Below, one piece after another: positions 1-64,000 of a stretch of DNA of 64,000 nt. The position numbers and the translations under genes are program-made. Position 1 is the stretch's first letter; each line of letters opens with the position of its first letter. Origin of the DNA: Psammoneis japonica (lineage: Eukaryota); NCBI GenBank assembly GCA_008632985.1, contig QPGO01000061.1, forward strand, positions 124,001 through 188,000. The letters run 5' to 3'. Below the pieces are notes generated by a model. That model did no database searches. It had not been told where the DNA came from and saw only the letters and a program-made list of their open reading frames with translations.

Positions 1-2
1 CG

Positions 3-371
3 GCACTTACCTTTCGAAAACGAATCGGCGGGGAAGATGAAATTCACGACTATGTTCGCAAGCTGGCGGTGGAAGCCCGTCGCCATTTGATTGAATTGTG
101 GAATGTGTCTTCGTCAGCCCCAGAGTCGATGGAAGAGTTTGTGATCAACATTGGTCTGCCAACACAAAACTTTGCCATTGTGTCCAATCTTCAGCAACAC
201 ATGTTGCAACAACACAATGTGCACATGCTGACAGTTAAAGAACCAACAAGTGAAATGCACTGTACAAGGTTGTCTGCACAGGTGCACCTGGAACTGTCTG
301 ACTTTGTTCGCATGGGGCAGCTTGTTTTGGACTGTGTCCAAGAACATGATTCGGTGCAAGCCGATGCGTGA
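3..371 (+). CDS. 3' end of a PLP-dependent class V aminotransferase-fold enzyme (Egt2 / L-cysteine desulfhydrase / isopenicillin N epimerase-like); 5' part outside window
   Basis: Open frame from base 3: ALTFRKRIGGEDEIHDYVRKLAVEARRHLIELW...TRLSAQVHLELSDF, matching the C-terminal RxSAQxYLExSDF pattern of this family, with Tyr appearing as His/Cys near the 3' end. Confidence 0.65.
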   Translation, partial: ALTFRKRIGGEDEIHDYVRKLAVEARRHLIELWNVSSSAPESMEEFVINIGLPTQNFAIVSNLQQHMLQQHNVHMLTVKEPTSEMHCTRLSAQVHLELSDFVRMGQLVLDCVQEHDSVQADA

Positions 372-450
372 GGGAAGGGCTGAAATGAGAGATCCAGCAT
401 TTGGTGCAAGCCCGATGCATGAGAGAAGGGCTGAAGTGAGAGATGCGGCA
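350..450. repeat. Two-copy tandem repeat, about 52 bp unit
   Basis: ggtgcaagcc(c)gatgcrtgagrgaagggctgaartgagagat occurs twice in tandem. Confidence 0.7.
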
Positions 451-913
451 GTTGTTCCCCCCAGAGGATGCAAGGCAAAGACACTTTAAGTTGAATGACG
501 AGATGTGCAATTTCTTCGGTGCGGGTGCATCTTCACCCCGAAAACATCCGAATGGTTCTACCTTGGCTGCTTGCCTGCTTTTCGTTCATTGCATTTGACG
601 GCCGATTGCTTGCGCGATCGAATGGTTCGTTCGAGAGAGAAATGCTCACATGCGAAATCGCATGGCGAGAGGTGTGTCGCCTTTTGGTTTAAAATGCCAC
701 CTCACTCGGCTGGAGTCGTGCTGCATTCTGCCAGTGTTGGGTACATTCGAAGAGCAAGGGAGGCACATTGCAGCAAGAACTGGCAAAAAGGACACACAAA
801 AAGCAATGTTTTATTTGGTTGAATCATCGGCACAAGCAGGCTTCCGCTACAAAATCAAATGCTTTGCACAACAAGCATTGCACTGGTTCCCCTTGTGTCA
901 CAACATCTGCGAA

Positions 914-2656
914 TTACGAAGCAACCGCTCTCGTCGTGTCACCACGGCCTTGGTTCGCGGCAGCAGCAGCTTTCATCTCGTCAATGAGCTTCACTGTTTT
1001 CCGAATGTTGCGGAGATGTTCGCCTTTGGCAATCCCCGCGAAATCCCCTGTGATCGTTAGAACATCTCTCGGCATCCTTCTCAGTTCGGTGTGAACAGAA
1101 GCCGCTCCTACGAATTCTCTCTCAAAGTTCTCTTGAGCTTCCATTTCCTCTTTAGCGCGACTCAGGCATTCTCCAAACCTCTCTTCCGTCAACAAAGGAG
1201 GAGGTCCCCAGCTGAATGGACGTCGTTGCCACCTCCGAAAGGACTCTGAGCACTTGAGTGAGAAACGTGGGTCACCCAATGCCCAAATAGCCAACCTGTA
1301 ATCTCCACTCCGCAAATCATCCAAAGCAACTTCAAAAAGACATTGGTTGATTTCCATCACTTCCTTGAGAAAGTCGGAACTGCCCCTGAGTTCCTTGGGG
1401 GCCAAATGGAGCGATCCCACCATCCAATGGTAAACTGGACAGCTGCTCACCACCAGCAAGAGCTTGTCACGGTCGCTCTTCCATTCGTCTGGATGTGTTG
1501 GTAAGATTGGAAGGCCCTCACGAAGCCACAATGCCCCAAATTTCTCATTCCACATGTGTGTTGGAATTTGGTTTGCGAGCCGTTCAACTTTGAAATGAAG
1601 CGCTTCAAACCCGCAAGGTCGGCGGCGGACATCTGTGGCTTCACGACAAACATGATGAATGTTCATGTCGTTGAGCTTGTCGGTTACGAAGACCTGATGC
1701 GCCTCAATGAACTCCGTTGATGCACGGAAAAGGCAGTTTGCATCTTCGTTGATCAGCATCTGAATGAAATTGCTGAATGATGCCTGATCAATGTGTTTGA
1801 TTGGATCGCAGTTCTCCTTGCACGCACGTTCCACAAGGTCTCGAAAGGGTGGCAAGCGCTCTTCCTGGAAAAGACCAAGAACAGCAGTTGAACAAGAGCT
1901 TAAAACATTTCCCCAAACCTGGCGATCTTCAGAAAGGCAAGGAAAACGGTCAAAAATGTTCATCACAACATTGTGAAAACTGGACCCGCACGAAAAACAG
2001 TGATCCTTGGGGTTTCCATTCGGGTCAAGCATGGGGTGGCAGAATTCTGCGTCATCTTGCAAATGCGCTGGAATGCAATCCCACGCAAGTTTCCCTTCCT
2101 TCAACGCATTGGCAAAAACTGGATTCGTCAAGAGGGGCGCATCCGCTGCTTCTCGCACTGTGCCACGTCTCAACGCCTTCAAGGACAAAGGCGCCGATTC
2201 GCGCCATTCATCCGCAGCAGGATTCACTTCTGCCCATTTCAAAAAATCACTTTCACAGGCCTTGAGCACAGCCGATCGATGGTTCTCAAGCATGTCTGGC
2301 AACACCTTTTGAAGCGCTGATCCTGAAACTTGTGACCGGTGAATTGAAATTTCGCCTGTCACTGTCGCTTGCTTCAGAACCATGGGGTCCTTGTGCAAAA
2401 CGTCAGGCAACTCGGACCAGGTGTCAACGTTGTGGTGTGGATCACATGTGATCTTCACGGCGGCTCGTGAGGACGCGTCTTTGTGCTTTGTCACCTCATC
2501 TTTGAGTCCAAGCTCCTCTTCTTTCCTTCTGAGCTCGTCTTCCTTCTGCCTGAGCAAGTCTTCGAGCTCGTGAGTGGATGCTGATGGCGAACGACTTTGC
2601 TCCTTGCCAGAGTCGTCGTTCTCTTGCTTCCTCTTCTTGTCGGGTTGCATTCTCAT
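914..2656 (-). CDS. Uncharacterised coiled-coil + DUF4116-like repeat protein; TpA-depleted, possibly a decaying gene
   Basis: Long ORF with probable start MRMQPDKKRK at 2656. Coiled coil (LEDLLRQKEDELRRKEEEL) and repeats such as SLHLAPKELRGSSDFLKEVM. Only 2 Tyr in about 580 aa, with many Cys/His. Confidence 0.5.
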   Translation of the reverse strand: MRMQPDKKRKQENDDSGKEQSRSPSASTHELEDLLRQKEDELRRKEEELGLKDEVTKHKDASSRAAVKITCDPHHNVDTWSELPDVLHKDPMVLKQATVTGEISIHRSQVSGSALQKVLPDMLENHRSAVLKACESDFLKWAEVNPAADEWRESAPLSLKALRRGTVREAADAPLLTNPVFANALKEGKLAWDCIPAHLQDDAEFCHPMLDPNGNPKDHCFSCGSSFHNVVMNIFDRFPCLSEDRQVWGNVLSSCSTAVLGLFQEERLPPFRDLVERACKENCDPIKHIDQASFSNFIQMLINEDANCLFRASTEFIEAHQVFVTDKLNDMNIHHVCREATDVRRRPCGFEALHFKVERLANQIPTHMWNEKFGALWLREGLPILPTHPDEWKSDRDKLLLVVSSCPVYHWMVGSLHLAPKELRGSSDFLKEVMEINQCLFEVALDDLRSGDYRLAIWALGDPRFSLKCSESFRRWQRRPFSWGPPPLLTEERFGECLSRAKEEMEAQENFEREFVGAASVHTELRRMPRDVLTITGDFAGIAKGEHLRNIRKTVKLIDEMKAAAAANQGRGDTTRAVAS

Positions 2657-2999
2657 TTTTTCTTGCCGTTCTAGAATGCCCCACTCTGAGTCAATTCCAA
2701 ACAGCCAATTGCGGATGTGAAGCAAGGATGAGATGGGGCAGCAACGATTCGCATTGAGTGGCAGGCATTGCGTGATGGCATTAAAATGCAACTCGTTTGT
2801 TGACAGGTGGGAGACACTGTAATGCAATGCCGAGCAACGACAAAAAACTGTGGAAGAACGAACGGCGTTTCTGCCATCGTCGTGTTGTTTGCACACGCAG
2901 AACACGCAGGGACATTTTTTCCACAATTGCGCCACAAACGATTGAATCATCAGTTGTTTTTGAGGCTTTTTACAAAAATGCATCATGTCGAAAAATCAA

Positions 3000-4720
3000 G
3001 GGGATTTGCACCCTAATTGTGACAGTCTGGCCATCTGTCAAGTTGCGTCAAAAAGGTGGCGCGGTGGAGTGGATTTGGACAGATTTGCAGCATTCATGTG
3101 AAAATCCAGAGCGGGCCACATTAGCAGGCCATTGGTGCTCACTTTGCTCACTGTTGTGGTGCACAACCCCTCCAGGCTTGCCACTGCAGTGTGTTGTTTT
3201 GCTTGCTGCTGCAGCCCTGTGGAGCATGGACATGGGCTGGCAGCAAGAAAGTGGCGCAAGTTGTGCAAACCGCCCACAACAAAAAAAAAAAGACTGCTGC
3301 CAGAGACTCGTTTTCTCATGATGTTGGAGGAATGACATCACAGTGTTCACTTGCACTTAAAAAAAGGGGTGGCTGGCCAGCGGGGCACAGACATCATTGT
3401 CTTGGTGTGCAGAAACTGAGAGAGACAACTCTGGGCAGCATGACACACATCCTCACCAGGAAGAAGTTTTGAGCTGCACCCCCGAGTGTGTTGAAATCTT
3501 GCCTGCAAACAACACCACAGTGCAAGCAAGTGTGTTGAAATCTTGCCTGCAAACAACACCACAGTGCAAGCAATCAAAGAATTGTCTCTGCTTGTCATCA
3601 GAGGAGAATGGCATGTGCTTGCCCTTGAATGAAAAAGTCAAAACGCAAAGAACATGCTCACCGCGCATGCAGTTTTCCGGAAAAGGAGTTTGGCACCAAC
3701 CAAGATCTGGTTGACATGTTGCTCTGCCCATGGAAGACCCAGCTCAGCCAGGGTGGTTGCCATCAAAATGAGTTTTGTGTCAGAAAATGGGTGTGAGCAT
3801 CTTTTGAGCATCGCCCGCACAAACTTGGCAAAACAAAAAAGAAATGGTTGAATTGGCTGCTCAGTGCAGGAGGAGTGCACCAATTTTAGACAGCACTGTG
3901 GTGCAAAGGCCTTGTCAATTTTTGACAGCATGGCGCAGGAACATTGGTGGAAACACACCCATGTGTCAGAACGACACCAAGGCTTTTGATGAGCTCCATC
4001 TGTCTTGATGTCATGTTGTGCCAGCAGGGCTGCAATTTGACAGCAACTTTTTCTCAGGTGTGGATTTGGGGCTCTAAACACACACCCCAATGCATGGAAA
4101 AATTGCCCAACTGATGGGGTTTGCCCTCAAACAACTGTGCAGCCAAGCACGCAGAGAGGCAGCCATGAGAGCAAAATTGTCAAGAGCACATGCTTTTCAG
4201 GGCTCACTTTGTGAGACACAATCATTGCAACATAAAGACAACCACTTTTGTGATGAATTGTCTGCAGCAATTCCAGCTCAATTTCATTGATCTCAGAGAA
4301 ATCTGCGCCAGGGAAGAGCCCTGGAGAGCTGCAGAGGTGTGTCTGTCATCGCGAGCTCTCTGACATGCATCATGCCCCCCCTCTGCTGTCCTCCATTTCC
4401 AGCACAAAAATGTCATGTTCCACTGGGGCATGTTGCAATTGTGTTCAATCTGGACATCCTTCTGGAGCAAAAACAGCCTCAAATTCCGGGTTGTCAGCAG
4501 CAACATGAAGCTGTTGGAGCCAGCCAAAACTGCTGGGTCCTGGGTGAAAAAGTGTCAATGCCATCAATTGATGCAATGTGTGGCACACCCACAACCTTGT
4601 TGCAAGTAGCCTTGAGAGAGGAAAAAGATGTGCTCTGCAGAACTGCCAAGCGTGATGTTGGATTGATGGGCATTGTGCGATTTCGCCGCTTTTTTCTTGT
4701 GAGTCAAGTCAGTCAGTCTC
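3000..4720. mobile_element. Degenerate TpA-depleted repeat/TE relic, family not identified
   Basis: Same TGCA-rich, TA-poor composition as the identified TE blocks; no recognisable domain. Confidence 0.35.
3487..3573. repeat. Two-copy tandem repeat, 44 bp unit
   Basis: gtgtgttgaaatcttgcctgcaaacaacaccacagtgcaagcaa twice in tandem. Confidence 0.85.
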
Positions 4721-4954
4721 ACTGATGGGTGTCGCTTTTCTCATACGACTAGTTCGATCGGAGTGCGGTGTGTGCCTTCCATCTTGTTCGAAGTCGTTCA
4801 CACGGGAAGTCAGTAACGTTTCCACACACGTACCCGTTGGTATAAGCTTACGCAGGTGCCTACGGTGTAGGGTCTTTCTCTCGTGTGCTCACATTTGAAT
4901 TTGATACTTCTCTAGTAGCTAGACTGCCCGTAATCTGAAAGATATATCAACACA

Positions 4955-5812
4955 ATGCCCTCGTACGATGATTGCTTCACTACTTTCAGCGTCGAAGTCG
5001 ACAGCAGTATCGCATGGGTGACTTTTGATTACCCGCCGGTCAACATTCAAGGTCTGCCAATGATGGCCGACCTCAACAACTTGGCTCAGAAACTTGAAGT
5101 TGACAAGTCCATCAAGGTGGTGGTCTTTCAGTCGGCGCATCCGGAAATCTTTGTCGCTCATGCCGATACGAACTTCTTAAAGGACATGTCGAACAAAGCC
5201 TACTCTCGTGACGAAGTCAAGTTGTTGGATCTTCAAGTTGTGCTAGAACGGATCAGCAAACTTCCTCAGGCAACGATTGCCAAGATTGAGGGTTTTGCCC
5301 GAGGTGGCGGCCACGAGTTTGCACTTGCTTGCGACATGCGTTTTGCAGCTCGTGGCAAAGCCAAGTTCATGCAAATGGAAGTTGGCATGGGCATCTTGCC
5401 GTGTGGTGGTGGCGCCTCGCGCATGGCTCGTCAGGTTGGCCTCGGCAGGGCGCTAGAAATCGTTTTGGGCGCCCGTGACTTTGACGCTGACGAGGCCGAG
5501 GCGTATGGTACAGTCAACCGTGCACTTGATGTGGACAAGATTGGTCCATTTGTGGAGGAACTAGCAAAGCGCATTGCATTGTGGCCGTCCGAATCAATCA
5601 ATGCCACCAAACAAGCCGTCTATGCCTCCATAGATCTCCCGATTGACGAAGCTCTTCGCGAGGAGGCTTACTGGTTGTACCAGTCCACGAGTCAAACTCC
5701 GGCCCTAAAACGCTTTAAAACGGCAGATGAGCAAGGTGCGCAATTCGACATGGGGAACCAGCGCACCTGGCCAGATATGCTGGTTAAGATCCAGGAAATT
5801 AAGAACGACTGA
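4955..5812 (+). CDS. Enoyl-CoA hydratase/isomerase (crotonase superfamily), intronless
   Basis: 285 aa ORF with IAKIEGFARGGGHEFALACDMRFA and EVGMGILPCGGGASRMARQVG crotonase motifs. Confidence 0.92.
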   Translation: MPSYDDCFTTFSVEVDSSIAWVTFDYPPVNIQGLPMMADLNNLAQKLEVDKSIKVVVFQSAHPEIFVAHADTNFLKDMSNKAYSRDEVKLLDLQVVLERISKLPQATIAKIEGFARGGGHEFALACDMRFAARGKAKFMQMEVGMGILPCGGGASRMARQVGLGRALEIVLGARDFDADEAEAYGTVNRALDVDKIGPFVEELAKRIALWPSESINATKQAVYASIDLPIDEALREEAYWLYQSTSQTPALKRFKTADEQGAQFDMGNQRTWPDMLVKIQEIKND

Positions 5813-6531
5813 GGCCAAATACAAGACATCGAGATACATGTCAGCACCTGTGGAAGAATCGAATTTTTATGGGTATTGCCTTTGCCATAGCCAAAGAAGC
5901 AAAGTCAATCTGTATCATGAACCTTTTTCAATAATTAGAACACGGACAGGAAATAGCAATAATGATCGCGTCAATTTTCAATGTCGTCGTGGCTGTACGT
6001 ACACCGAGATTGTCCTGGCTTGTGCGATTGGATGTCCCTACTAAAGTCACATCATGGGACGGCTTTCATTCTGTCGTTGCATTCCCAATGCCAAGATATT
6101 GCTGCCATCTGGCAATGTGACGCAATCGCAGGAGAACCTGTTCACCCTTGCGCCGTTTCTCCAACGATAAACCTTGTAGTATTGACGAGACTCAAACCAT
6201 CCGGAATGCGGTTGCGGGATACACAAACACAAGACGCTGTTACACTACTTCATTGACTTTTATGCCTCGCTTTGCGGACGAGCAAGCGATTTCTCCTTAG
6301 AATGCATTGTTTCAAACGGGGAGATACTGCTCATCATTGCATAAGTTTGTGAAGGTGGTGTGCGAGCCTTAATGGCGAGAGAGAGGAGAGAGAGAGAGAG
6401 ATTTGTCAACATGATACTTCATTTGGCCTTGTACGAAAGCGTGTTCAGCTAGGAAAATGACCGAAAGCTAGGAGCTTTGTGCCACGGTCCGATATTGCAG
6501 TTCTCCAAGCGCTTTGCAACCACCAAACCAC

Positions 6532-8016
6532 TCAATTCTCTCTAGCGAAAATGACGCCAAAAATCAGCTCAATAATGTCGATCATGAGAATCTTCAATGA
6601 AGCGCCCGGAGGCACGCAAACAGAGTTTTGCTTTGGAATACACCTTCGTCCATGTGGACTTGCTGCCAAATTGACTACACCCGTACCATGTTGTAATCGA
6701 ATGAAAGAATAAGGAGTCAACCGCTCGTGTTTTCGGTCTTGCTGATTGAATCCGCACTGCCACCAAAACTGGCATTGTTTGGGAAAGTCTCTCCACGGCT
6801 TGTAGCTCCCGGCATTTTCATCACAGCACGCTCCGCCGTCGATACTATTCAACTCCAACACGGTTGAAAAGTTTCCAGTGGAGGGAACAACCTTGAGTTT
6901 GTTCTGTATAGTAGGCACGTCAGACTCGTGTGCCAATGGCTGGAACCGGTGTGGAGCGAGAATTAACCCCTCGTCAAGAGCATCCTTTAGCTGCGGCAGG
7001 ACCCACGGTTTGGATAGAAGAATCGTATCGGGCTCCGTCAAGTACACATATTTCCAGTAGGATGCATTATGAGTCCGTCCCAGCCACGCTTTTCCCGTTC
7101 CTCTTCGAGTTCTCCCTTGAACGCCTTTTGCAATACATACAACGCCCCCCTGGGAATGTTGATGGGAACAAACTTAGATTTGACCTCCTCGGTTGTAACA
7201 TTTGCGTATCCTACCTCGGTTGAACCAATCTAAGCACTGGCTCGTCATTATTGTTTGTAATGTTTGTTCCTTCCATATTGTCACGGACGTGGCGGAATGC
7301 GCGTTGCACATGGTCCTCGTCGTGCATTCGGTGTCCCACCACTACAACTCGACCAAAGCCAACCTGAAGAAGTGATGCTAACGTAGCCGCAAGTGCTGAT
7401 GCGGTAAGCTCCTTTCCTCGATCTTCCTTGTTTGGACTTGTATATGGCTGGAACGCAATCACCGCCAATGTCGGTCGCAGCGGTGAATCCTCTTGGATTG
7501 TAGCTTTCTGGACGTAATTGTGAAAACTCGAAATTGCCTTTTCAAACGGAGCAGGATCCTCTCCAAACACGTCCATGATTTTCCACCACTTGGACATGTG
7601 TTCCACGGAGAAATCCAACCAATCCAACGTCATTCGAATATCTCTTCTGTTGGTGTTGAAAAAGGCAAAGCACGCCGACTCGACCGTCGCAATGCGGTTA
7701 ATGTCGTAATGATGTACAAACTTGGACGTTGGTGCGAGCCACGAGGCGGAAAAGAAATCGTTAATTTCGGGAATACTTGCTCGATTGAGAAAGAAAACCT
7801 TGTTGTTCTTGTTGTTCTTGTGTTGTGTATGGTTTTGTAGTATGGCAGTAGTAGCATTGTAGTTTGATTTCCGCAGGCTTCATGCGATGAAATGTCGTTC
7901 TGATTCTGAATGCCCCATGTCACCAGATTTTTCTTTCCATCTCGGATATTCCATGCAGCAAGAATTACCACTAGTGCAAGCAATGTGAATCCTTGTGGAT
8001 GTCCGCTGAAAGGCAT
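6532..8016 (-). CDS. Type II membrane protein (putative Golgi glycosyltransferase-like), broken by about 3 frameshifts
   Basis: N-terminal TM (FTLLALVVILAAW). Frames join at about 7865, 7232 and 7092 to give ...WLDFSVEHMSKWW...GFGRVVVVG...PINIPRGAL...YWKYVYLTEPDTIL...PHRFQP. No GT-AG intron explains the shifts. Confidence 0.55.
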
Positions 8017-8644
8017 GGTTATTGAAGTAGAGGCAGTCGCAAGAATAAGCGAAGTAGAGTTTTCGAAGTTCCGGCAACGTGTATGTATTGCACAACGATT
8101 TTCCTATTTCTAAGAGTAAAACGAGATAAACCATGAACAAATTGGTCGTGACGTCATGATTTAGATGGTAATTCCTTCAACTTTTGAAATTTGATTTGCC
8201 AATTTTTGAAAATAAAAAACCAATCATCCAACAATCTACCGCAGGTATCGCACATTCGCACGATGACGTTCGCCTCCGCCTCCCACGCCGTTGCTGTCCA
8301 TTTCCAGTCCAGAAACGATTGAAAAGTGCTCAAGTTTACAGTATTCAATTGTGGTGGAGGATAATGAAACCCGAGGAGAGAGTCCTGTTTTAGCTCCAGT
8401 TCGAAGTTGTTTGTGATTGTCAATCTCCGTCCATCTGTTTATCAGAGAAAGGTATTCGAACTTCACTATTTTCCCCCTCGAAGAAAGTGACGTCATGCGT
8501 TGCCGTAGTGACAAGAAAATCGAAAGAGAACTCTGTCGACGCGAGGCAAATGCGAACTCCGATCGTTGGATCTTTTGCTCTTCTCAATTCTCATCGCTGT
8601 CGTGCGAGCCATCGCACAAAAAAACACGAGAAAAAGAAAGCACA

Positions 8645-10667
8645 ATGATAATCATGAAACGATTTCTTCTATTAGCGTTGAGTATCGCCCTGCAGTTCAG
8701 CACGAGCAATTCCTATGTGGTCCCTCGGATTATTCAGGTAAGGAGGAGAGTAGCTGATGGCTTGATCTCACTCCTAAGACACATAATATCCTCAGCATAC
8801 TCAACGCTTTCTCGCTTTGTCGCGTGACTCGTTTCTTTCTACTACTAGGGCGGAATGGGTGTTCGGATATCGTCATGGCAGCTTGCCCGTGAAGTAAGTC
8901 GTAAAGGAGAGCTTGGTGTAATCTCTGGAACGGCCATGGACACAATCTGTGTCCGGACGCTTCAGAATGGTACGTATTGCAAGAACTCAACATTATTTGT
9001 CAATCACGACTCCTTCCCCCTCAATATATATAAATTGTCTACTCTTTGTTGATGTAAATCTTTTAGGTGATCCAAACGGTGATATGCGTCGAGCTCTTGC
9101 TACATTTCCAGATCAAGACATGGCAAACCGGTTCCTCAAAAAGTACTTTATTGAAGGCGGAAAGGATCCGGAGAAGCCTTTCAAGAGCCTCCCCATGTGG
9201 ACGGTTACGCCGTCTCAGTCGTTGCTTGAAGCTGCCGTATTGGGTAACTACTGCGAGGTTTGGTTGGCAAAGCACAATGACGATGGGACCCCAACCGGTG
9301 GCATTGTGGGGATCAACCGGCTTACCAAAGTTCAGCTGCCAACGATCGCTTCCTTGTATGGTGCCATGCTGGCAGACGTGGATTATGTAATCATGGGAGC
9401 CGGAATCCCTCTTCAAATTCCAGGAGTGCTGGATAATCTTTGTGAAGGAAAAGAAGCAACCTTTCCAATTGACGTTCAGAACAGTGAAGATAACCACTGC
9501 ATCAAGTTGGATCCTGTGGAGTTTTGGGAAGCGGCCGGAAAACCAAATCTGCTTGCCGACTTACCACTCAAGAGGCCTGCATTTGTCCCGATTGTTTCTT
9601 CCGTGGTTCTGGCTCAAAGTATGGTAAAGGTAAGTTCAGAATCATGCGCTACTCTCTTGTCGCCAAGAGAGCAAAATGTTATTCCGCCGCCGTCTCACAG
9701 TATCATTTTGTGTGTTTGTGTGTTTCAATAATAGCGTGCCAATGGAAAAGGACCAACCAAGGGAATTGACGGCTTTGTTGTAGAGTTACCGACAGCTGGA
9801 GGTCATAATGCACCACCGCGTGGCTTTCAATACGACCCCGTCTCCAAGTCTCACGCTCTAGCACTCAATGACAAGGGGGAACCCATCTATGGACCCAAAG
9901 ATGAAGTTGATCTTTCCAAGTTCCGCAAGGCAGCCAAGGGATTGCCATTCTGGATGGCGGGGTCTTATGCACACGCGGACAAGTTTTGCGATGTGATTGA
10001 AATGGGCGGTGCCGGTGTTCAGGTCGGAACCATGTTTGCCTTGTCCAAGGAGTCCGGAATGGAAGCACAGACCAAACAGGATATTCTTAGCCGAATCGCA
10101 GTGGAGGACCTTGACGTGTTTACGGATCCTGTTGCCTCTCCTACCGGATATCCCTTCAAAGCACTCCAGCTTGAAAATACCTTGTCGGACGACGACAAGT
10201 ACTTGGCTCGTCCTCGTGCTTGCACACTTGGATATCTTCGCACTCCGTATATTGATGAAACGACTGGCAGAATCGCGTACCGATGCGCAGCAGAGCCCGT
10301 GGACGACTGGATCAAAAAGGGAGGAAATGTCGAGGCAACCAAGGGCCGAAAATGTCTCTGCAACTCGCTCTGTGCCAATGTTGGCTTTCCTCAGACGAGG
10401 TTGGTCAAAAACAAGGACGGCGAAAAGACCTTGTATGAAGAAGAAAAGTTCATCACCATCGGTGATGAGGTCAATCTATGTAGAAGGTTTTTGAAGCAAG
10501 ATGAAAATGGCCAGTGGGGCTACTCGGCGGGTGACGTTGTGGACTATCTCAAGTCTGAATGGGAGGAGACCACTGCCCAGAAAGAGCTCGAAGAAATCAT
10601 TCTTGATGCTGTAAATACGGACACAAAGGTCGAAGTCGAGGATTACGCCAACTACAATTATCCCTAG
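8645..10667 (+). CDS. Nitronate monooxygenase / 2-nitropropane dioxygenase family flavoprotein, 4 exons, N-terminal signal peptide
   Basis: Exons 8645-8737, 8849-8969, 9067-9629 and 9735-10667 joined by GT-AG introns restore PRIIQ/GGMGVRISSWQLA, MGAGIP, VELPTAGGHNAPPRG, WMAGSY, GVQVGTMFA and SPTGYPFK. Confidence 0.88.
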
Positions 10668-31527: not shown

Positions 31528-31529
<2 letters not shown>

Positions 31530-54015: not shown

Positions 54016-54241
54016 AAACTTAAAAAAAGCTAAAAAGCAAGGTTTGATGCTAGCATATTCTAGACTTTGGCACGTTCTTTCGGTTCCCAGCACTAAAGCA
54101 TTATTGAAAAGGATTCTGATGGTTACTGTAATATCATTTTCTAGAGAACTATTGCCTCGGGGGGACTCATCCAGACGCAATCGTTGAACTATTGCCATGC
54201 GTCGCTCGTCGCTCTGCCATTCACCTTTTTTATTGTTTTTT

Positions 54242-54727
54242 TCAAAGAGAAGGTAAAGGCTGAACCAACACACATCCTTGTTCAACAATGATCCCTAATT
54301 CTTCTGCTCTGGATAATACATTTGGTGCATCCGCACCGGGTTGAATAAAACAGTATCGAATGTTCCTCTTTTTCATTTCTTCCAACACGGAGACACCCAC
54401 GCGTGGTGATACAATCAGATTGACAGCATCAATTTCTACATTGGCAGGAATATCCGAAAGCTGTCTGTACAAGTTATTATTTTCGCCGGTTTTTCGGAGA
54501 TAAGGTGAAACTCGGTACACGGTACGACCTGATTGCTCCAACCGATTCGCCACGGCAAACGCCGGTTTTGCAGTGTTGGTCACGTCTCCTACCACCGCCC
54601 ATCGCGACAAACCTTTGACACCAAGAACGGGACCCGATGATGACATTGTAAGAGATGATGAATGACCAACAAAGAGTGATAACAGTGCCAGCAGCACGAC
54701 AACTGCCGCCATTGATGAGGTCGACAT
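54242..54727 (-). CDS. CoA-binding domain protein (YccU-like) with signal peptide
   Basis: WAVVG...KPAFAVANRL...VYRVSP...LSDIP...IDAVNL...FIQPGA...GCVLV pattern; hydrophobic N-terminus. Confidence 0.82.
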   Translation of the reverse strand: MSTSSMAAVVVLLALLSLFVGHSSSLTMSSSGPVLGVKGLSRWAVVGDVTNTAKPAFAVANRLEQSGRTVYRVSPYLRKTGENNNLYRQLSDIPANVEIDAVNLIVSPRVGVSVLEEMKKRNIRYCFIQPGADAPNVLSRAEELGIIVEQGCVLVQPLPSL

Positions 54728-55369
54728 CGTCAGACTGTAGACTGTCCATCTTCATCTGCGCGCGATACGTGGAGAGCAATCTTTCATTCGTGAGCCGCGA
54801 CCACGCAGGGTGACCGCATCTGGCCAAAACGCACTGATTTTGTCTGATTCATCTTTCAGCACAAATTCTTCACAAGGTTCTTTGACCACAGCAGCTGGTT
54901 GGAGGTGTCCCTCATTTTGAGCGTGCTTCACTCACAGTCACCAAGCACAAGGAGAGGATCACTTTTGGGTGGTTAAACTCTTGGCAAAATCGGCGCTCTC
55001 AAGAGCATCACACAGGAGAGGGCAGGAGAGATGAGTCGCACAGCTGGCCCCAGACAACAGACATAAAAGAATGATGAGAGAGAGGCCACCCCAGCTCTCC
55101 TCTTTCTTTTTTGGCAGATGATGCGCAGCAATGGGGTCAGCTGTGGCAACCCAAAATGGTGGGTCAACAGTGCTGAAACATTGTTTTTCTGCTCAGTTGC
55201 TTGTGTGCATTTTCGCGCAGCAGCTGCCCACACAAGCTGCGTTTGGCACACCTGCCTGCTCTTGAAGGTTGCATCACTTGATTGATTGGTGACCCAGCCA
55301 TCTGTGTGCAACCTCTTTCTGCATCTCTTGTCCTCTCTTGCACACAATGCTGTCAGAGTGCATGCTCTG

Positions 55370-58300
55370 GTCATCAGAGGTCCGTTTCCACCATGAATTG
55401 TCGCGTGATCAGACCAGTTGACAATGTTGCAGATGGCATGTGTGAGTGTCATCACATGAATTCACTTGTGATGATTCATTGCCATTTAACATGAGAATCA
55501 CTTGAAAACAAACAAATGTCCATGCAAACAAAAAATGTCTGGCAATGTCAAAAAACAGACGTCAATCCCAACAAGTGAGGTGCAACTCAACAAGTTCATG
55601 ACTCCAAACAAGTTGCTCAGCGGGATTTCACTTTGCTTGTTGTTGCCAACTGAGTGATGACCAAATGCAGTGGTGGGATTTGTTTTCAATTTTTGCTGTC
55701 AAAGTGGACTTGCATGTCAAAACAATTGTTTTCCATTGTCCCATCCATTTGTTGCATGTTTGCTGCTCTGCAATCGATTGTCAACAGTTGTGAATGCAAG
55801 CAATCGCTGCCAAGTCAATCTTGACTAAACTGCCACCAACTCCAGTTCACAGATTTTAGCACAGTTGACCTGATGGTCATCTTTGCCATCTGAGCCATCC
55901 TGTGCTTCTTCTGCCACCTGTTGATCTTGCTTGGTTGCAACAGCTCTGCAGAGCTGTTCCCACTGGCCGAGGCACCCCCACTTGCAACATCTTGCTTGAT
56001 CTCCAGGACCATTTAAACAAAGAACTTGTTGGTCTTTGGCAACCACCCTTTGCTCTTCCTTTTTATCTTGCACTTCCTTGGTCCTGTGTTTCTGTCTGTG
56101 TCTTTTGGCTTTGCTGCCGTGAAATGCTTGAGTGTCCTGACAACCTTTCTCTTCTTGCTGGATGCACTTGCATTGCTTTGGCTGTCAATGAGTGCTTTTG
56201 CAGCCTTGGCCAGACCTGTCACTCATGCTGCAGTCTTTGGCTCATCTCTGATTTTCTTGACCATTGCTTCCCATTTTGCAATGGATTCTTCCCTTGTGTT
56301 CTCAAACTTCTGTTTCAGTTCTTGCACCGACAAACCTTCCTCCTCCAACGGCTCTTCTGGTGGATCTTTCCAGAGCAGCACAAACATGCTCAGGTCCTGG
56401 TTGTCCTTCTCCTTGGCTGTCACGAGGTCTGGCATGATGGTCTTGCACAAGTCATTGCTTCCCTCTTTGTCCATCATGCCTCCATTGTCAAAGTCCTGTC
56501 CTTGTTTTGGCTCTTGCAGTTGGCATGCCATGCACCACAGTTGTTCTCTCAAGGAGCATGTGGGCAAACACCTTGGTGTGTGCTGTGCCCATCCTCTTGT
56601 CCTTGGCAATGCACTCTTTCCAGTGTGCACCTCTGACAATTGGGTGCAGCATGCAGTCACAGAACTCTGTCTGCAAAGCTGTGTTTCCCAAGCAATCTTG
56701 GAATCTTTCTGCGGATGGCAAGACTCAATTGTTGTTGCCATTGCAGCATGCACAAAGAGCTTCATTCATGGCAGGGAAAGCAAGTGACAACACTGTCAGC
56801 AATTGCAATGACTGTTCTTGTTGCACCCTCCACACTTGCTGTGGAAATTGTCCTGCTGTGCCTGGCGCACATTCGACCTCTCAATTGCTGGCCACTCCTG
56901 ACACATCCTTTTTTGTTTCATCACAAGCCACAGGCAGCACAGGCATGTTGTTTGCTCTGGCTTGGGTGAATCCTGCAGCATCCTGTCCATCATCTTGGGG
57001 CTGCAATTCTGTTCACAATCCCTGCAGAGCATGTCTGTTTCCTCCATTTCCTTGTCATTGAACATCAGTGTGGCATTGAGGAACAATGTTTCCTTGACAT
57101 GCTTTCTCACCTTTTCCATGTCCTGCATCACCTTGGCATGATCCGCCATCCAATCAGTTGAGGTTGTCTGCCACTCCACAATGTCCCCATCATTCTCTGC
57201 TGCTGCCGCCGTGTTTTTTTTTTTGGTGTGTGCTGAAGCACACTGAAGTGAGGTGATGGGTGAGGTTGAGTCTTGCAAATGATGTGCACACAACAGTTGT
57301 CTTTCTTCCTTCAATGTGTTTTTTTGCTTGCCTGAATGGGGTCTTTTCCCCACATTTTTTTATTTGGCTGGACATCTGCATTCAAATTTAAACAGATCCT
57401 CTCTCTCTCCAATTTAAAATGTTTCATCATCAATGTCTGAACATGTGTTTGCCATGATGTCCAATGTCTTTTTACAGCTGACTCTCTAATGGCTGTTGCC
57501 GCCATTCCAAGTGACTCCCACTCAAACATCAATCAAGTCTTCACTCAACAACTTGATTCAAAAATCAATCTGACACCTGCACACCAACAAATGGTTGTGA
57601 ACAAGAAAAAAATTGTCTCACCTGGCTTCTGCCAATGCCGGCAAAATGCACCCTGTCCAGTGTGTCTGCCACAACTCAATTGAGCCAGCTGTTTTTGTTT
57701 TCCAAGAACAGTGAGTTGTTTGTCAGTTGTCCGTTTCTGCCTCTGAGAAAGACAAAGCAGCAAATCCCAGCACGGACTTCAATGCAGACAATGACCCACC
57801 CAGCTTCCCACCCGCAGAAGACCCGGAGCTTTTTCCCACACCCAATGAGAAAGCAGAGGAGGAGGAGGACAAATGTGATGACAATTCCTCACATTGCAAA
57901 ATGTTCCCTGGCACTCTTGCTGCATCTTTGTCCTCTCCTCTGGATGAGACATCTGAAGAATCCACCCTCCCCCCAGATCCACCCACTGTCCCTCCCACCA
58001 CTGCCAACTTGGATCCCTTGCATGGGAAGGCACCTGATCCACCAACCTTTTCACTCACAGAGGAAGCTTTGCCAGAGCTGATCACTCCATGTGACAATTT
58101 TGGCGCCACTCGTCAACTTCACAGTCAGTTGCTCACCCTGTTGCAATGATTTTGCAAGAAGTGGAGTTTCAGTTGTTCCTGGTGTTGTGGGCGGGACTTG
58201 TTGGTGAAGAAACTCCACAAGAAGCTTTTCCTGCCCCAACCCGACACTTGCATCATTGGCAGATGGGAAGTCACTTGCCTCCTCATGCTGGACATGTTGA

Positions 58301-61300
58301 GAGATTTGCTCACCCACTCAATGTTCAATGACGAGCACAATGTCAATGTGAACAAGTCCATGCAGGCATGTTTCCACAAGCCACCAAACTTTTTGCTGGC
58401 AGAGGAAGCTTCACTGGAGCTGATCACATTGGGGGACAATTCTGTTGCCACTTGCAACCAGCACAATCTCAACATCAACAAGTCCCCACAGGCGCGTTTC
58501 CACAAGTTTGTTCCTGTTGACGACTGTGATCTCCGCATGATCATGTCCAACAAATGGTGCTCCAACACATGCGATGACCTCCCCAAGGACTTTGACTGCA
58601 AGAAAGACTTGCTCTTGCCAATTGGCTTGTGCGCTGATCAGACTGGGACTGATGCCTGTCAAGGGAGTCCCCTCAAACCCTGATTGTTTTGTGTTCTTCT
58701 TGCCAAGAGGCATGTGTGGGAGCGTGATTGTGCTTGGCGTCACCTCGGGTTCATGCCAAGCATGGACAAGGGTGAGGTCAGTTGCTCACTTGACAAGAAC
58801 GGCAACATGAGCAAAGATGGACAAGCAGTTGAGTCTTCTTCATCAAACATACAAGCTTGCCACGACATGTTGTCTTTTCTTTTGGAAGATTTGAAGGCAT
58901 TGCAGGCAGAGCCTCCAATCATGAAGGTAAAAGTGGGTGGTGTTTGACGTGTTCCAGCCGCACGTGAACCAAATCGTGCACAAAAACGACATTTGCGCGA
59001 TTTTTGCGCGGTCCCTAACTTACGATCGAACTTTCGCCACCAAAAGTATAGATTTATACAAATATAAATGTTTTGCAACACTAACAAGACTCGTGTGAGT
59101 GTTGCAATGTCATTGTTATTGTGCTATCTATGTTTTTCAGTGCGTTAAAAGATTCGTAACACAACGGATGATTTTCGGCGAAAATATTGCCGTTATTTGG
59201 ATGTTACCTAAATATATTTTTCTACGATGATACTTGGTAGGTTTTCTACCTACAAAGAAATCTCAGTATAAATCCACTGACGTACAATCAGTATTGAGTC
59301 TACTGAGGAAGTTTATGATACATGTCCTATGAGGATTTGAATACCACTCAAAAAACTATTTAAGTGTTCATACTCTAGAAGCCTATAAAAGTCAATCCGT
59401 CTAAGTATTTTTATTAAAATGCTATATACACTAAAATATACATAAATTATATTCAAAATCCGATTGTCGTTTTGTGCGTCACCTGGGACTGGAACACGTC
59501 GTTTGCCGGCTCATGCGCACCCTCCTTGTGCAAGGGCCAACATTCAGGGACCAGAAGTCACAAGACTTTGTTTGCAGATGGAAAGCAACCAATGGTGGAG
59601 GTGCCGCATTGCCTCTGCATGTGTTCTGCCAATGATGTTACAAACACCTCCCGCCCAACCAATGAGCTTGGTCTTTCTTTTTCTCTGGTCAATGTGAAGA
59701 TTGTGTCCCGTCTTGATCATTTTGCAAGGACAGTCCATTGGATGGCTGCCTCAAGAGGCAACAAAGGCTTGCAGCAGCTGTTCTTTTCCATCCGCACATG
59801 CACTGGCTGAGAAATGCCTTTGACGGTGTCAACTTTGGAAGCAATCCATGGGGTGTGTTGTGGCTGACAACCACCTTTGTTCCTGGGAAGCCGGTGGTGC
59901 AGAGAATGTTGTGCATCCCAAAAAAAAAGGTGGATCTGTTGGCCATGCAGGAATCATGTGATGGGGAGGATGTTGCAGTTCAAAATCTGCACCAGTTCTC
60001 TAACCCATTTAGAGTTGTGTCATGAAGCACCATCAGAGGAAACCAACAATCAAGGGAGCCAGACACACGGGTGCAACATCATCCAACATGAAGACCTGCT
60101 CTTCTTTCTTGGAGCATGTTCTTTGCCGCCATGCATTTTGTCACTGCTCGCACAGACTTCTGGGGCAGTGATGCACAAGGATCATGCCATGATTCACTTT
60201 GGGATGAAGCAAGTGGTTGGCCAGCACATGGACACCATCCCATGCTGTGGCAACAACTTGGCCGCAGACTTTGACATGGGAAAGGTTGAAGCCCAGAACC
60301 ACAAGGACTTTCATCATTCATTGCTTGGTGACAACATGCAATCATGCACATCAACGGGTGAGAGACTGTAGAAAACCAAAGCAAAGAAGATTTCCAAGAT
60401 GGTGCAGAAGTGCGGTGAGGCCACTTTCCTCCAACAGACTTGCAAACAAATTTGTGAAGCCCTTCTGGTGTGCGGAAGGTGTGTGGACAAGACAGCCATG
60501 CAGAAGTTGGGAGACAAAAGGTCACATCACGTGGTCTTGCAGATGATGCATCCTCTGTTGCCAATGAGGATGGAGAATCCAAGGTTGCCAGACGCGTGCC
60601 ATGCTTTTTCTTCTGGCACGATTGTTTTGACAATGTGTTGTCACTCAATTGACACGTCAACAAAAGCCCGACCAACATGGAAATGGGTGCACCATGCTGA
60701 GCTTTCCTGGGAGCCATCCAAGAACTGTGGCCAAACCAAACAAGGTTTCACACATGGAACAAAGCAAAACTTTCCAATGGTGACTGCCTCTGAGCTTGCC
60801 CAGAGCACTGCTCCAAAGAGGGCCCATGGTTTGGCTTGGCAGAAGTCAATTTTGACATGGACGATGCATCCAGCAAGCCACACCCTGCCCATGTTGTTGG
60901 TTTCTACAAGGAATCCAAAGGGTTTGCCAAGGCAATTGTTCACTCTGTTGACTGTGAGTTGGCATCTGCCTGGGCAACTGAGTCAGATTTCGGGAACACA
61001 AGATTGTTCACTCGTTGTGCACAAGAATTTTAATCATCCAGAAGACCGTTGATGTGGAACCTTTGCATTCATTTGATGTGGTGCGACATTTCCTGTTGCA
61101 CATCACAGCAATGCAAAGACCCACCCCCCAAGTGCACAACAAAAACCAGAGGAGGGAACACAGAGTGATGGTGGTCAAACCCCTCTTGGACTGGGCAAAG
61201 ATCTTTCATGCATGAATGGACCAGGGAAATGACATCAAGAGAGGACAGCGCTGAGGGCACTGACAAGTGCATCTTTCAGAGCGATTGCCATGCAGACAAT

Positions 61301-64000
61301 GTGGGCTCACAGGAGACAAGAACAGCCCAAGTTGCACGATGTAAAAGGGGAGTTTCTTGATCAACATGTTGGGTGTCCCCCATCATGCGTGGTCCATGCT
61401 TTCACCATGAACACATCACAGGGGTTTTGCGTGCATGTGAGGGGTCTTTGCACATGTCAAGGGAGTGCATGATGCATGACCCCCCACATGCTCTCCCCTC
61501 ACATGCACGCCGATGCGTCACTTGTGCATCATCATGGAACACTGCCAAGTTCCTCTCAAATGTCATTCACATGTCACCAAGTCCTCCCCCCTGCACCATC
61601 ATGACATCACATCTTGTTCCTGCACCAAGCAACAGATGGACACTTGACAGATCAAAAACTGTTTCATTTGAGCTCACCGCCTTTCTCTCACAGTGCAATT
61701 TTTTGAAATTTGGACCAAGCGACCACATGCATGAATCCCCCCCCACTGGCGCCGCTTGATTCAACTGACCTCAAGACAACTGTTTTGTTGTGCAGCATTG
61801 TTGAAAACAGCTGCCACATTTTTAACAGGGACCCCCCGCAAGTCTGCACATTGTCTGCAGCTCCTTTAGCTCCGTGATTGCTGCATGACATTTTTCATCA
61901 CAAAAACAGCAAACCAACCACGGAGATTGTCAAGGCCACACAGCTTCTCATTGCCGCTTTTCCAGCTGTGGTTTCCATGTGTGTGGATGGCCAGTGACCT
62001 TGTGCTGAAGCCACTGCAATCTGGCAGCTTTCTAGGACTCCACAAGTCCAATGTCTCATCTGCCCTCTAAGTCACATCAAATTCCATTGCCCTCCTGGCA
62101 AACAACTGCAGAGGCAAGTGCCACTGCGCTGTTGCTCTGACGGGTGAAGAAATCCAATGCAATTGCTGTGAGGCACAGAATTTTGAAGGGTGTCTTCCTC
62201 AAAGAATTGGGAACATGCATCTCTTCAGCAATGCAAGGGAAAAGGATGGTGTGGCAGTGGTGGAGGCAGCTCAGACATTGTGGGAAGCAGGCCATGTGCA
62301 CAAGAAGAGAACAAAGGCGATGCTTCTCCCAATGCTTCTGGCAACTTAGAAACACGTCACAGTGATTCAGAATCCAAGACTGTTGTTGATGGCGGATCCA
62401 AAGGATTGGGCAAGAAATTGGCAGATTCCTTGATTGCTTCTGCAAATGAGCTGCGGCAGAGCAGCACGTCATTGCATGCCGGCATGCGGCAGGATGATGC
62501 TTGAGAGAGGTTTCTCTGTGTGGGAGTTGCTTGAGCACAGCAATGGCTGTTCACACATGATCACAAGACACCAATGCAATGCTTTGCAGAGTGTTTCAGT
62601 TCGACAATGACGGAGTGGTCAAGTCCATCTGCAAGAACACAACGACTGGTGTGTTGGGTGTTTCTCTGTGCGGGAATTGCTCAAGCACTGCAGCAACTGC
62701 CATTGTGAGACACCAATGCAATGCTCTGCAGAGTCTTTCCATTGGATGCTGCCTCTCCTCTGATGCATGAAGTGAAGTTAACTCCACCATTTCCATTCAA
62801 GGTCCCTCTCAAGCTGAGCTGCCTGCTTCTCACAAAGAGAGAACTGTCTGTCTCCAAATCTCCCAGCAAAAACCAGGTTTTGGGGTGCTTGTAAAAACCA
62901 TCAGGTGTGGGAACTTTGAGATGACTTTTTCAGTGGTGCTCAGGAAGCCGCGGCATTGCCTCTCCTCTGGGGTGTCACTTGCCACCATCGGTGCGCATCC
63001 TGACCCTCACCAACAACACCTTGAAAGTTCCCACACTTCTGCAAGCCACTCTCAAGGTAAGTCTGGAGGCAGTGGTGCTGGCAGTGTCAAACTCTGAAGT
63101 GGGGAATGTGTTGAAAAACTTTCTGCTTGGGTGCCCATCTTCATTCTCATCAGAGAAGTGTGAAGGACACCAAGGGTCACCTGCAACACACTTTTCAAAG
63201 AAGTTGAAGCAGATTCAAAATGACTGGCTCATTGGGAAGGGAGCTCCTGGACTGGCTGGTGGGCCAAAAACCTCAAAGAGTGACCCAATCATGTTGAACT
63301 TGGCAAACCGGCTCTTTCTGAATTGGTGGCTCATGTCCTTGAGAACGGAAGTGTCACTCACCCAAAGGTGTCTGACACCATCAAACTCACCCTTGTCCAT
63401 CAAGCTGAGTGTCTTTGACAGGAGGTTGTCTGGGTCAGCCAGCTCTGCCATTGGCTTCTTAATCAGCTCCTGTTTGTGAAGTGAGAACAGCAAAGTCAAC
63501 AAATTGTCCAGCCTGCAAGTGTTGTTGATGCCAGGATGGTCTCCTTTGCTGGGACATTCCATGGGATGCCTTGGAATGAGGTCACAGCATGCCTGGGTGC
63601 AGTTTTCTTTGATGCTGGTGTCTTTGTTTGATTTTTGTTTGCTTCATGGTGCCTCCTGACTGCTTCTTGCTCAAAGAACAAAGCTTTGCTGCCTCCCCTG
63701 GCCTCTTTTTGGGCGCAAGCTTCTTTTTGGCCTTGCCAGCTGCTTTGTGGTGTCTGGTGCTCTTCCATCATTGGGTTTTTTCCCTTGCTTTCTTTTGCTC
63801 TTGGACTTCTTGTGGCCTGACTGGATGGTTTTGTGAGCTCGCAATGGTGTGAAATTCCCCTTGCCACTGCCTTTCTGTCAAAGACATTTGCATTGCAGAA
63901 CTTGAAAGCATGCAAAACTGCTTCTCCAATGGTCAACTTGGTCTTTGGTGCACTGCGCGGAAACTGTTTCCCAACATTTTCCTGTGCATTTGTGTCTGTG
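55370..64000 (+). mobile_element. Degenerate Plavaka-like DNA transposon, copy 2 (transposase relic about 58050-61215 on +, accessory ORFs on -); right end uncertain
   Basis: LLPIGLCADQTGTDACQGSPLKP...AWRHLGFMP and WLRNAFDGVNFGSNPWG; inverted homology to 13800-17750. Confidence 0.65.
58946..59500 (-). mobile_element. MITE family A, TpA-rich (young) copy
   Basis: Same TIRs as 47078-47626; 4 bp TSD GTTT. The empty site (single GTTT on the minus strand) is present in the paralogous element near 14243. Confidence 0.96.

Follow-up and report, generated by a model that had tools for sequence, protein, structure and literature searches.

A probable footprint of targeted TpA hypermutation in transposable elements of the diatom Psammoneis japonica

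Why are long blocks of transposable element (TE) DNA in a diatom nearly free of the dinucleotide TpA, while the genes lying between them keep it? We addressed this question in a 64,000-nucleotide stretch of the Psammoneis japonica assembly (contig QPGO01000061.1, positions 124,001-188,000), hereafter the window. An initial annotation had described blocks poor in TpA and rich in TpG and CpA, and had proposed that repeats are hypermutated from TpA to TpG or CpA at the DNA level. The analyses reported here lead us to conclude that these blocks very probably record a real, targeted, TpA-specific A:T to G:C mutational process acting on chromosomal DNA.

We computed observed/expected dinucleotide ratios (o/e) for the whole window and profiled them in 64 one-kb windows. 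Over the entire stretch, TA occurs 963 times (o/e 0.23), CA and TG are in excess (1.57 and 1.50, respectively) and CG stands at 0.60. TA o/e is only 0.02-0.20 in 41 of the 64 one-kb windows, as compared with 0.39-0.70 in those of the gene islands. When pooled, the TA-poor blocks (44,495 bp) contain 223 TA dinucleotides, for an o/e of 0.08, with TG and CA both at 1.67 and CG at 0.44; the corresponding values for the pooled gene islands (18,396 bp) are 0.50 for TA, 1.22 for both TG and CA, and 1.00 for CG. The only depleted dinucleotides in the TA-poor blocks are TA and, in some blocks, CG, whereas ApA is depleted nowhere (AA o/e 1.21 in TE blocks versus 1.18 in gene islands). The degree of TA depletion varies from block to block (o/e 0.02-0.26), and the block edges are abrupt: a TA at position 4750 is followed by dense TA from 4814, and a TA at 26259 has its next neighbor at 26511. 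The TA-poor state thus ends within about 100 bp of genes. These data bear out the contrast first reported between blocks and islands, and the block coordinates given then proved correct to about 100 bp, including those of a small block at 26.8-27.4 kb, where no TA lies between 26772 and 27417. Two TA-rich insertions of miniature inverted-repeat transposable elements (MITEs), absent from the initial annotation, are nested in TA-poor blocks, at 37225-37620 (o/e 0.89) and 58946-59500 (o/e 0.92). The blocks, the elements within them and the control gene islands, with open reading frames (ORFs) and long terminal repeats (LTRs) where recognized, are as follows.

1-4750: TA-depleted block without recognizable TE protein; 32 TA, CG partly kept
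4751-13216: control gene island (TA o/e about 0.4-0.7) with enoyl-CoA hydratase, an NMO-like gene and a DEAD-box helicase
13217-19939: degenerate TE, TA- and CpG-depleted (25 TA, 76 CG); inverted paralogue of 55372-59915
21020-26405, minus strand: Ty3/Gypsy LTR retrotransposon with LTRs at 21020-21182 and 26243-26405; TA o/e about 0.12, CG o/e about 0.9
21410-24475, minus strand: Gypsy pol ORF (reverse transcriptase, RNase H, integrase), open but hypermutated
26773-27416: small TA-free stretch inside a gene island, with flanking TA at 26772 and 27417
27417-31436: control gene island with a GT7 galactosyltransferase-like gene; read depth about 54
31437-37224: TE block, TA- and CpG-depleted, with a copia-type gag-pre-integrase fragment at 36116-36994 (minus strand)
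37225-37620: TA-rich MITE with terminal inverted repeats, very high copy, unmutated; 26 TA, o/e 0.89
37621-42903: TA-depleted block; 12 TA in 37621-42750
42904-45239: control gene island with a sulfotransferase
45240-52542: TA-depleted block, partly less complete (o/e 0.06-0.26), with a weak Asp-protease match at 46205-46870 (minus strand)
47078-47626, plus strand: MITE copy, mutated state; 11 TA, o/e 0.24
49056-50300, minus strand: retroelement gag-like ORF, hypermutated; tyrosine 0.2%
52543-54766: control gene island with a TspO/MBR gene
54767-58945: TE block, TA- and CpG-depleted; inverted paralogue of 13.8-17.7 kb
58946-59500, minus strand: MITE copy, unmutated state, in a TA-poor block; 53 TA, o/e 0.92
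59501-64000: TA- and CpG-depleted block; 16 TA

A deficit of TA accompanied by an excess of TG and CA does not reveal which state came first, and we determined the direction of change by comparison with relatives of the affected elements. For the Gypsy pol protein, 60 of the 120 homologues found (53-70% identity) were aligned, yielding 490 conserved columns. Among the 23 columns with a conserved tyrosine, whose codons begin with TA, the window protein has kept only four and carries cysteine in 12, histidine in six and phenylalanine in one. Changes thus affect 19 of 23 tyrosine columns, but only 56 of 467 conserved columns of other kinds. Other replacements expected from TA to TG or CA were also present, namely Ile to Val (five), Thr to Ala (five), and Met to Val, Leu to Pro, Leu to Ser and Val to Ala (two each). 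Relative to the solved Ty3 structure, YY has become CC and NY has become NC at conserved sites, while the tyrosine of the YxDD motif is retained. The protein as a whole contains 0.5% tyrosine, 4.0% cysteine and 4.1% histidine, as compared with homologue medians of 3.5, 1.8 and 3.0%, respectively; tyrosine content is normal in 119 of the 120 homologues. The gag-like ORF shows the same pattern in an even more complete form: all 11 conserved tyrosine columns have been lost (five to cysteine, five to histidine, one to alanine), versus 24 changes in 96 other conserved columns, and its tyrosine content of 0.2% lies far below the median (3.3%) and minimum (1.6%) of 150 homologues. The outgroups therefore give TA as the original state, with tyrosine replaced by cysteine or histidine at 18 of 23 sites in Gypsy pol and 10 of 11 in the gag-like ORF, and the residue replacements predicted in the initial annotation hold against them.

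The two ~555-bp MITE copies provide a comparison within the window, in which the TA-rich copy at 58946-59500 serves as the ancestral-like reference for the copy at 47078-47626. At the 52 aligned TA sites of the former, the latter has CA at 24, TG at 17 and TA at 11, while none of the 11 TA dinucleotides of the mutated copy is absent from the TA-rich one. T to C or A to G changes at TA account for 41 of the 69 mismatches between the two copies. Overall, three separate tests agree, at the level of sequence comparison, that TA is the ancestral state and that the direction of change is from TA to TG or CA.

We also searched for the same pattern elsewhere. A protein in the JGI/IMG collection (P0214, with members P0242 and P0243) belongs to a different Gypsy lineage and is 56% identical to the window pol. 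Of its 18 conserved tyrosine columns, three are kept, nine have become cysteine, four histidine and two phenylalanine (13 of 18 to cysteine or histidine), whereas nine control homologues in the same comparison keep 18-23 tyrosine columns. Judged by these replacements, the footprint exists outside the assembly of the window. By contrast, 31 related metagenome loci retrieved with P0214 as the query, its own contig not being among them, have a TA o/e of 0.48-0.98, and none of the 31 is TA-depleted; along with the normal tyrosine content of nearly all pol homologues, this indicates that TA poverty does not belong to the TE lineage itself. A scan of viral contigs with the Gypsy pol as the query found no relative.

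The two LTRs of the Gypsy element indicate where and when the changes took place. They differ at 20 of 163 nucleotides, and these mismatches include five double differences in which one LTR has CA and the other TG, as well as two TA/TG differences, while CpG is kept. Since the LTRs of an element are identical at integration, the occurrence of TG in one and CA in the other at the same site means that a single ancestral TA was resolved in different ways after insertion. By our estimate, each LTR has lost about 90% of its TA sites, against a divergence of about 5% between the two LTRs at other sites. The same signature dominates the inverted paralogue pair at 13.8-17.7 and 55.4-59.9 kb, in which CA/TG makes up 104 of 236 double-mismatch dinucleotides and the next class only 14. 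Furthermore, TG and CA o/e values are alike within each of 10 blocks, without strand bias, and the TG and CA outcomes along the mutated MITE form 20 runs versus 20.9 expected, so no strand-coordinated runs were detected in that element. Read together, these patterns are those of many separate events on integrated double-stranded DNA, affecting both strands, site by site. The earlier proposal of a DNA-level process is thus supported by the LTR discordance and the lack of strand bias.

Polarized changes in the MITE pair further allowed us to assess the specificity of the process. With the two strands collapsed, A to G changes were found at 41 of 104 TpA, but only three of 120 ApA, two of 69 CpA and none of 59 GpA sites, which represents an approximately 16-fold enrichment at TpA over other NpA contexts, in agreement with the enrichment previously anticipated. 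Polymerase eta-like synthesis, one of the candidates put forward in the initial annotation, fits poorly: its WA to WG signature needs A to G changes at both TpA and ApA, and ApA is unaffected here, as judged by both the MITE pair and an AA o/e that is not lowered. We next examined flanking bases using word survival, defined as the fraction of a tetranucleotide remaining in TA-poor blocks relative to gene islands.

ATAT: 0
ATAC/GTAT: 0.019
GTAC: 0.053
ATAG: 0.067
ATAA: 0.10
CTAG: 0.11
CTAC: 0.17
GTAA: 0.20
CTAA/TTAG: 0.39
TTAA: 0.52

A series of about this shape would be expected from two independent strands if the A of TAY (Y, pyrimidine) mutated faster than the A of TAG and TAA. The polarized MITE comparison gave the same order, with 32 of 63 TAY and nine of 41 TAR (R, purine) sites changed (Fisher p = 0.004). 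The preferred context is TAY, i.e., RTA on the opposite strand.

Some of the TA-poor blocks have lost CpG as well (o/e 0.02-0.3 at 14-20 kb, 32-36 kb and 55-64 kb), and this block-wise depletion suggests that the older elements carry methylated cytosines. The decay of CpG through 5-methylcytosine deamination cannot remove TpA. All CpG-poor windows are TA-poor, but the converse fails: CpG is kept in the block at 1-3 kb and in the Gypsy element, where CG o/e is about 0.9 while TA o/e is about 0.12. Because the Gypsy element has kept CG and lost TA, TA loss must be separate from, and faster than, CpG decay. Decay driven by 5-methylcytosine was accordingly rejected as the sole cause, also in view of the changed tyrosine codons, which contain no CpG.

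We then asked whether sequencing reads support the assembled bases. A public DNA run (X1, platform not on record) contains a fraction of 0.87 of the sampled words of positions 26001-36000, whereas two other runs (X2 and X3) contain next to none of the window sequence; no RNA run was listed among those containing it. Logan contigs of X1 with a word depth of about 48-55 span 26325-35901, and depth is equal (about 54) over the TA-poor part and the gene island. Against 31655-35901, these contigs show one to 13 differing letters per piece of 449-1507 nt. The reads thus carry the TA-poor sequence at single-copy depth rather than contradicting it, and this sequence is not an assembly artefact. The TA-poor bins compared with X1 have about 2- to 400-fold single-copy depth, from which it follows that they represent repeat families; where TA has been lost, the DNA is TE-derived and multi-copy in the reads, and the gene islands are spared. 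At single-copy depth, X1 contigs depart from the window by one TA/TG difference and two CA/TG double differences (sites 31302, 32036-32037 and 35914-35915), together with several CpG/TpG or CpG/CpA differences between 31735 and 34763. Allelic or strain variation at two hypermutable dinucleotides may account for them; in that case, they are weak hints that the TA and CpG processes may both be recent or ongoing.

What could produce such a pattern? The explanation that we consider likely overall is TpA hypermutation fixed in place, the footprint of a regulated mutator of the type observed in the rhizarian alga Bigelowiella natans (Mettrop et al., bioRxiv 10.64898/2026.01.13.699255, 14 Apr 2026). 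The sequence shows that A:T was converted to G:C almost only at 5'-TA-3', giving TG, or CA if the opposite strand was hit. The changes arose in integrated double-stranded copies, on both strands equally, and ended sharply at the edges of TE blocks. Their rate was highest where a pyrimidine follows the mutated A and far above the rate of CpG decay. By analogy, the window may hold the long-term, saturated footprint of the process seen ongoing in silent integrated viral DNA of B. natans, and the mutator would be directed at silenced or foreign DNA, as a mirror image of fungal repeat-induced point mutation (RIP). We infer that it is driven by an enzyme and serves genome defence. As to chemistry, the simplest and, of those considered, likeliest route would be that adenine in DNA is deaminated enzymatically to hypoxanthine at TpA and read as G at the next replication, a step that we put forward tentatively. 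Because TAA and TAG are destroyed and no stop codon is ever made, elements killed in this way keep long open frames. More broadly, there is a fair, though less than even, chance that diatoms and, with B. natans, perhaps much of SAR (stramenopiles, alveolates and rhizarians) have an editor dedicated to double-stranded DNA, guided by chromatin or RNA, that turns A:T into G:C at TpA (RTAY/TAY) in silenced selfish DNA. A DNA adenine deaminase or a T-side modifier would then provide a RIP-like defence of opposite chemistry, one that kills elements without stops and raises GC.

Several observations weigh against this reading or narrow it. Its scope is a single 64-kb window. The adenine deamination step is proposed from base sequence, and it is weakened by the TAY preference, with T best at +1, which mismatches the tRNA anticodon substrate of ADAT/TadA; the anticodon context would not predict a preference for T at +1. 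The paralogue pair is also CpG-depleted, and part of its CA/TG discordance may stem from CpG. Run X1 may be the assembly's own source, in which case it rules out an assembler or polishing artefact and leaves platform independence unproven. Slow, untargeted decay in unrepaired heterochromatin, although improbable, fits the sequence too. Finally, the MITE at 37225-37620 keeps its TA even though X1 depth reaches 50,000-81,700 in the bins covering it (about 1000-fold).

The last observation bears directly on targeting. The initial annotation had called the process repeat-targeted, which is correct insofar as loss is confined to TE-derived multi-copy DNA; repeat targeting in the sense of RIP, however, was not shown, since two high-copy MITEs keep TA. 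A duplication trigger would have to account for TA-poor blocks that are about 2- to 400-fold in X1, next to a ~1000-fold MITE and a copy at 58946-59500 that retain TA, the latter despite mutation of the copy of the same family at 47078-47626. Repetition alone does not seem sufficient as a trigger. Either the unmutated MITEs are younger than the last activity of the mutator, or what it recognizes is a chromatin or silencing state and not homology. The main target in B. natans is a single-copy, transcriptionally silent viral insert (bioRxiv 10.64898/2026.01.13.699255), which favors a chromatin or silencing state.

Among the rival explanations, modification of the T rather than the A of TpA in silenced DNA retains an outside chance. 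TET/JBP-type oxidation, for instance, would yield 5-hydroxymethyl- or 5-formyluracil, which mispairs with G and leads to T to C changes. 5-Formyluracil is mutagenic, and in telomere repeats JBP acts on a T that precedes A. Because TA is self-complementary, T to C and A to G are indistinguishable and their outcomes symmetric. RTAY comprises the most flexible DNA steps, which would suit any base-flipping enzyme, including one that works on TpA in duplex DNA as this route envisages. The literature searched contained no evidence of such a modification in diatoms, and a search combining 5-hydroxymethyluracil with diatoms returned only a dinoflagellate review.

Untargeted, slow, context-dependent decay, caused by spontaneous or ultraviolet lesions at TpA or by a polymerase eta-like WA bias in silent DNA that escapes transcription-coupled repair, would require no defence system at all. 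We consider it improbable as well, although the graded depletion between blocks (TA o/e 0.02-0.26), the mutual independence of site outcomes and the unmutated state of young insertions are what gradual, age-dependent accumulation predicts. It does not readily explain why the frequency of change at TA is about 16 times that at other NpA while ApA, the other half of the polymerase eta motif, is nearly untouched (three of 120), why an estimated 90% of LTR TA sites are gone against about 5% divergence elsewhere between the LTRs, or why the borders lie within about 100 bp of genes. In addition, 31 related loci elsewhere keep TA, and the B. natans process was on in only 11 of 15 lines and restricted to particular regions, as reported in the preprint (bioRxiv 10.64898/2026.01.13.699255).

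A sequencing, base-calling or assembly artefact, such as a modified base in TE chromatin that is misread and left unpolished in repeats, is very improbable. Run X1, whose platform is not on record, may derive from the source sample of the assembly and would then share such an error, but its contigs give the TA-poor sequence at the word depth of neighboring genes (about 54), and a modified base would be expected to affect only the reads of its own strand and hence to produce mixed TA, TG and CA calls rather than a clean state per site. TA-rich MITEs occur within TA-poor blocks of the same assembly, and the separate JGI/IMG protein P0214 has the same tyrosine to cysteine/histidine pattern in 13 of 18 columns.

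We give even less credence to A-to-I editing of TE transcripts by an ADAR- or ADAT-like enzyme, with the changes fixed when edited transcripts are reverse-transcribed and inserted anew. RNA editors of the A-to-I type typically prefer a 5' U (bioRxiv 10.64898/2026.01.13.699255), and several of the affected elements are retrotransposons. However, editing of RNA would convert TA to TG on the sense strand only, and both strand bias and runs are absent; the two LTRs of one element differ, TG versus CA, at the same sites; and the mutated MITE copy is a non-autonomous DNA transposon. Editing of an RNA or complementary DNA intermediate is excluded because of the LTR discordance, the strand symmetry and the absence of runs. 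Lastly, it is scarcely credible that these TE families have been poor in TA from the outset, whether because they came horizontally from a TA-poor genome or because UpA/TpA is selected against, a known bias in expressed RNA being UpA avoidance (PMC3829696), given that conserved catalytic-core tyrosines have been replaced, TG/CA outcomes are copy-specific in LTRs and paralogues, unrelated element types share the state, and related elements elsewhere have a TA o/e of 0.48-0.98, such that both the outgroup and the LTR tests contradict this view.

The makeup of the TA-poor blocks agrees in part with the original assignment to every class of TE. The Gypsy element, the copia-type fragment, the gag-like ORF and the MITEs were recovered, whereas the IS630/Tc1 and Plavaka-like elements had no Pfam match among the 105 ORFs of the blocks, where the gag-pre-integrase match, a weak Asp-protease and a weak DEAD match were the only hits. 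Most other TA-poor DNA beyond the recognized elements is too degraded for Pfam. The family name of the retroelement gag-like ORF is our own inference, as Pfam assigned no family to eight of its homologues. Long open frames, some overlapping in different frames and lacking homologues, occur throughout these blocks, e.g., at 917-2995 (minus strand), 37677-38720 (minus strand) and 55869-56784 (plus strand). They are probably spurious, a consequence of the disappearance of TAA and TAG, which leaves only TGA as a stop. For the first of them, only a sub-threshold DUF4116 match was obtained, with no homologues and no atlas match; the second had no Pfam match and no usable atlas match.

The MITE at 37225-37620 is about 396 bp long with terminal inverted repeats of about 26 nt, lies nested in the old copia-type fragment and represents a family that is apparently both very abundant and young. 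The terminal repeats of the ~555-bp family resemble those of this MITE. One further repeat in the window is distinguished by its depth.

20305-20527: 110-bp tandem repeat, TA-poor, with very high read depth

Its two units are 93% alike and adjoin the sole assembly gap (N run at 19940-20091). X1 word depth in the bin 20100-20763 is about 23,700, versus about 54 for single-copy sequence, and the repeat may be a satellite. Among the genes of the islands, the DEAD-box helicase has its highest-identity named matches (about 45-53%) exclusively in diatoms, while a few longer plant proteins score higher at 38-40% identity; these matches point to a diatom with no closely related species sequenced in that database. 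The sulfotransferase ORF at 43719-44915 (minus strand) contains an internal direct repeat at 44490-44695 of about 102 bp, with copies 83-85% alike, which would encode a repeated peptide segment.

If it holds genome-wide, the process would have practical consequences for diatom genomics. Gene callers are liable to be misled by the long spurious ORFs that TA-poor blocks yield in every frame, and dead TEs look intact; TE ages calculated from LTR divergence would be inflated several-fold. The findings also predict a natural enzyme that makes A:T to G:C changes in chromosomal DNA within a defined context, which would be of interest to the fields of DNA repair, epigenetics and base editing. The Gypsy family offers a substrate for experiments, as does the pair of mutated and unmutated MITEs, a natural before-and-after.

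How does the process compare with known systems? CpG decay in methylated transposons likewise raises TpG and CpA in silenced TEs but, unlike the process in the window, leaves TpA. The adenosine deaminases ADAT2/3, TadA and ADAR convert A to I, which is read as G and gives A to G changes, and a 5' U or T next to the edited A is a common preference among them. Their natural substrates, however, are RNA; the +1 pyrimidine preference seen here, with T best, does not match the tRNA anticodon context, and the strand symmetry argues against an RNA intermediate. Engineered TadA base editors exist; to our knowledge, no natural enzyme has been found that rids chromosomal DNA of TpA. The B. natans preprint does cite editing of DNA by the ADAT2 of amphioxus and of trypanosomes (bioRxiv 10.64898/2026.01.13.699255). 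APOBEC editing of retroelements (e.g., PMC4866542) resembles the process in the window in being a hypermutation of the deaminase type whose fossil traces persist in integrated retroelements, but it consists of C to U changes on minus-strand cDNA during reverse transcription, resulting in strand-biased G to A changes and leaving DNA transposons untouched. It was rejected on its defining feature, being strand-biased and not acting in place.

Fungal RIP (e.g., PMC2621366 and PMC7296669) is another parallel. It causes C to T changes, mostly CpA to TpA, that create TpA and stop codons and lower GC, and it is duplication-dependent and premeiotic. Both processes introduce dinucleotide-specific transitions on both strands of selfish or repeated integrated DNA and inactivate it irreversibly. 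The outcome is the reverse in the window, where TpA is destroyed, CpA and TpG are gained, GC rises and stop codons can never be generated; its opposite direction led us to reject RIP itself as the cause.

The strongest resemblance is to B. natans. In mutation-accumulation lines of this alga, two integrated viral regions received 231 of the 302 nuclear mutations, and 230 of these 231 were A to G or T to C, all at TpA (bioRxiv 10.64898/2026.01.13.699255). The same source reports a rate of about 6e-7 per site per generation, about 1000 times background, in 11 of 15 lines only. The main targets were a single-copy, transcriptionally silent insert of a nucleocytoplasmic large DNA virus (NCLDV) and a virophage insert; the NCLDV insert is as yet only mildly depleted (Rho TpA 0.45). 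The B. natans genome further contains 324 coding sequences that have almost no TpA and in which reverse-transcriptase and DDE domains are overrepresented, as well as 124 window clusters that are TpA-poor and CpA+TpG-rich (bioRxiv 10.64898/2026.01.13.699255). Its authors propose an ADAT2-like DNA adenine deaminase, the machinery being unproven, and compare the process with RIP; diatoms are not mentioned in the main text of the preprint.

In both organisms, substitutions are almost exclusively A:T to G:C transitions restricted to TpA, giving TpG and CpA, and are confined to sharply bounded foreign or selfish DNA with host genes spared. Whereas new mutations were measured directly in B. natans, the window displays the end state only, near saturation (o/e 0.02-0.15), and while viral inserts of a rhizarian are the targets there, LTR retrotransposons, MITEs and degenerate repeats of a stramenopile are affected here. 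To what is reported in the main text of the preprint, the window adds a TAY/RTA flanking preference, evidence from LTRs that the changes occur in place, and independence from CpG decay. The literature searched, diatom TE papers included, contained no description of TpA hypermutation in diatoms, and the window thus holds the first diatom case, and the second in any organism, that we could find of a kind of process first described in 2026. If it extends genome-wide, the single B. natans observation would be joined by a far more extreme one from an unrelated lineage, and the two would together define a class of genome defence in eukaryotes that targets TpA rather than CpG or CpA.

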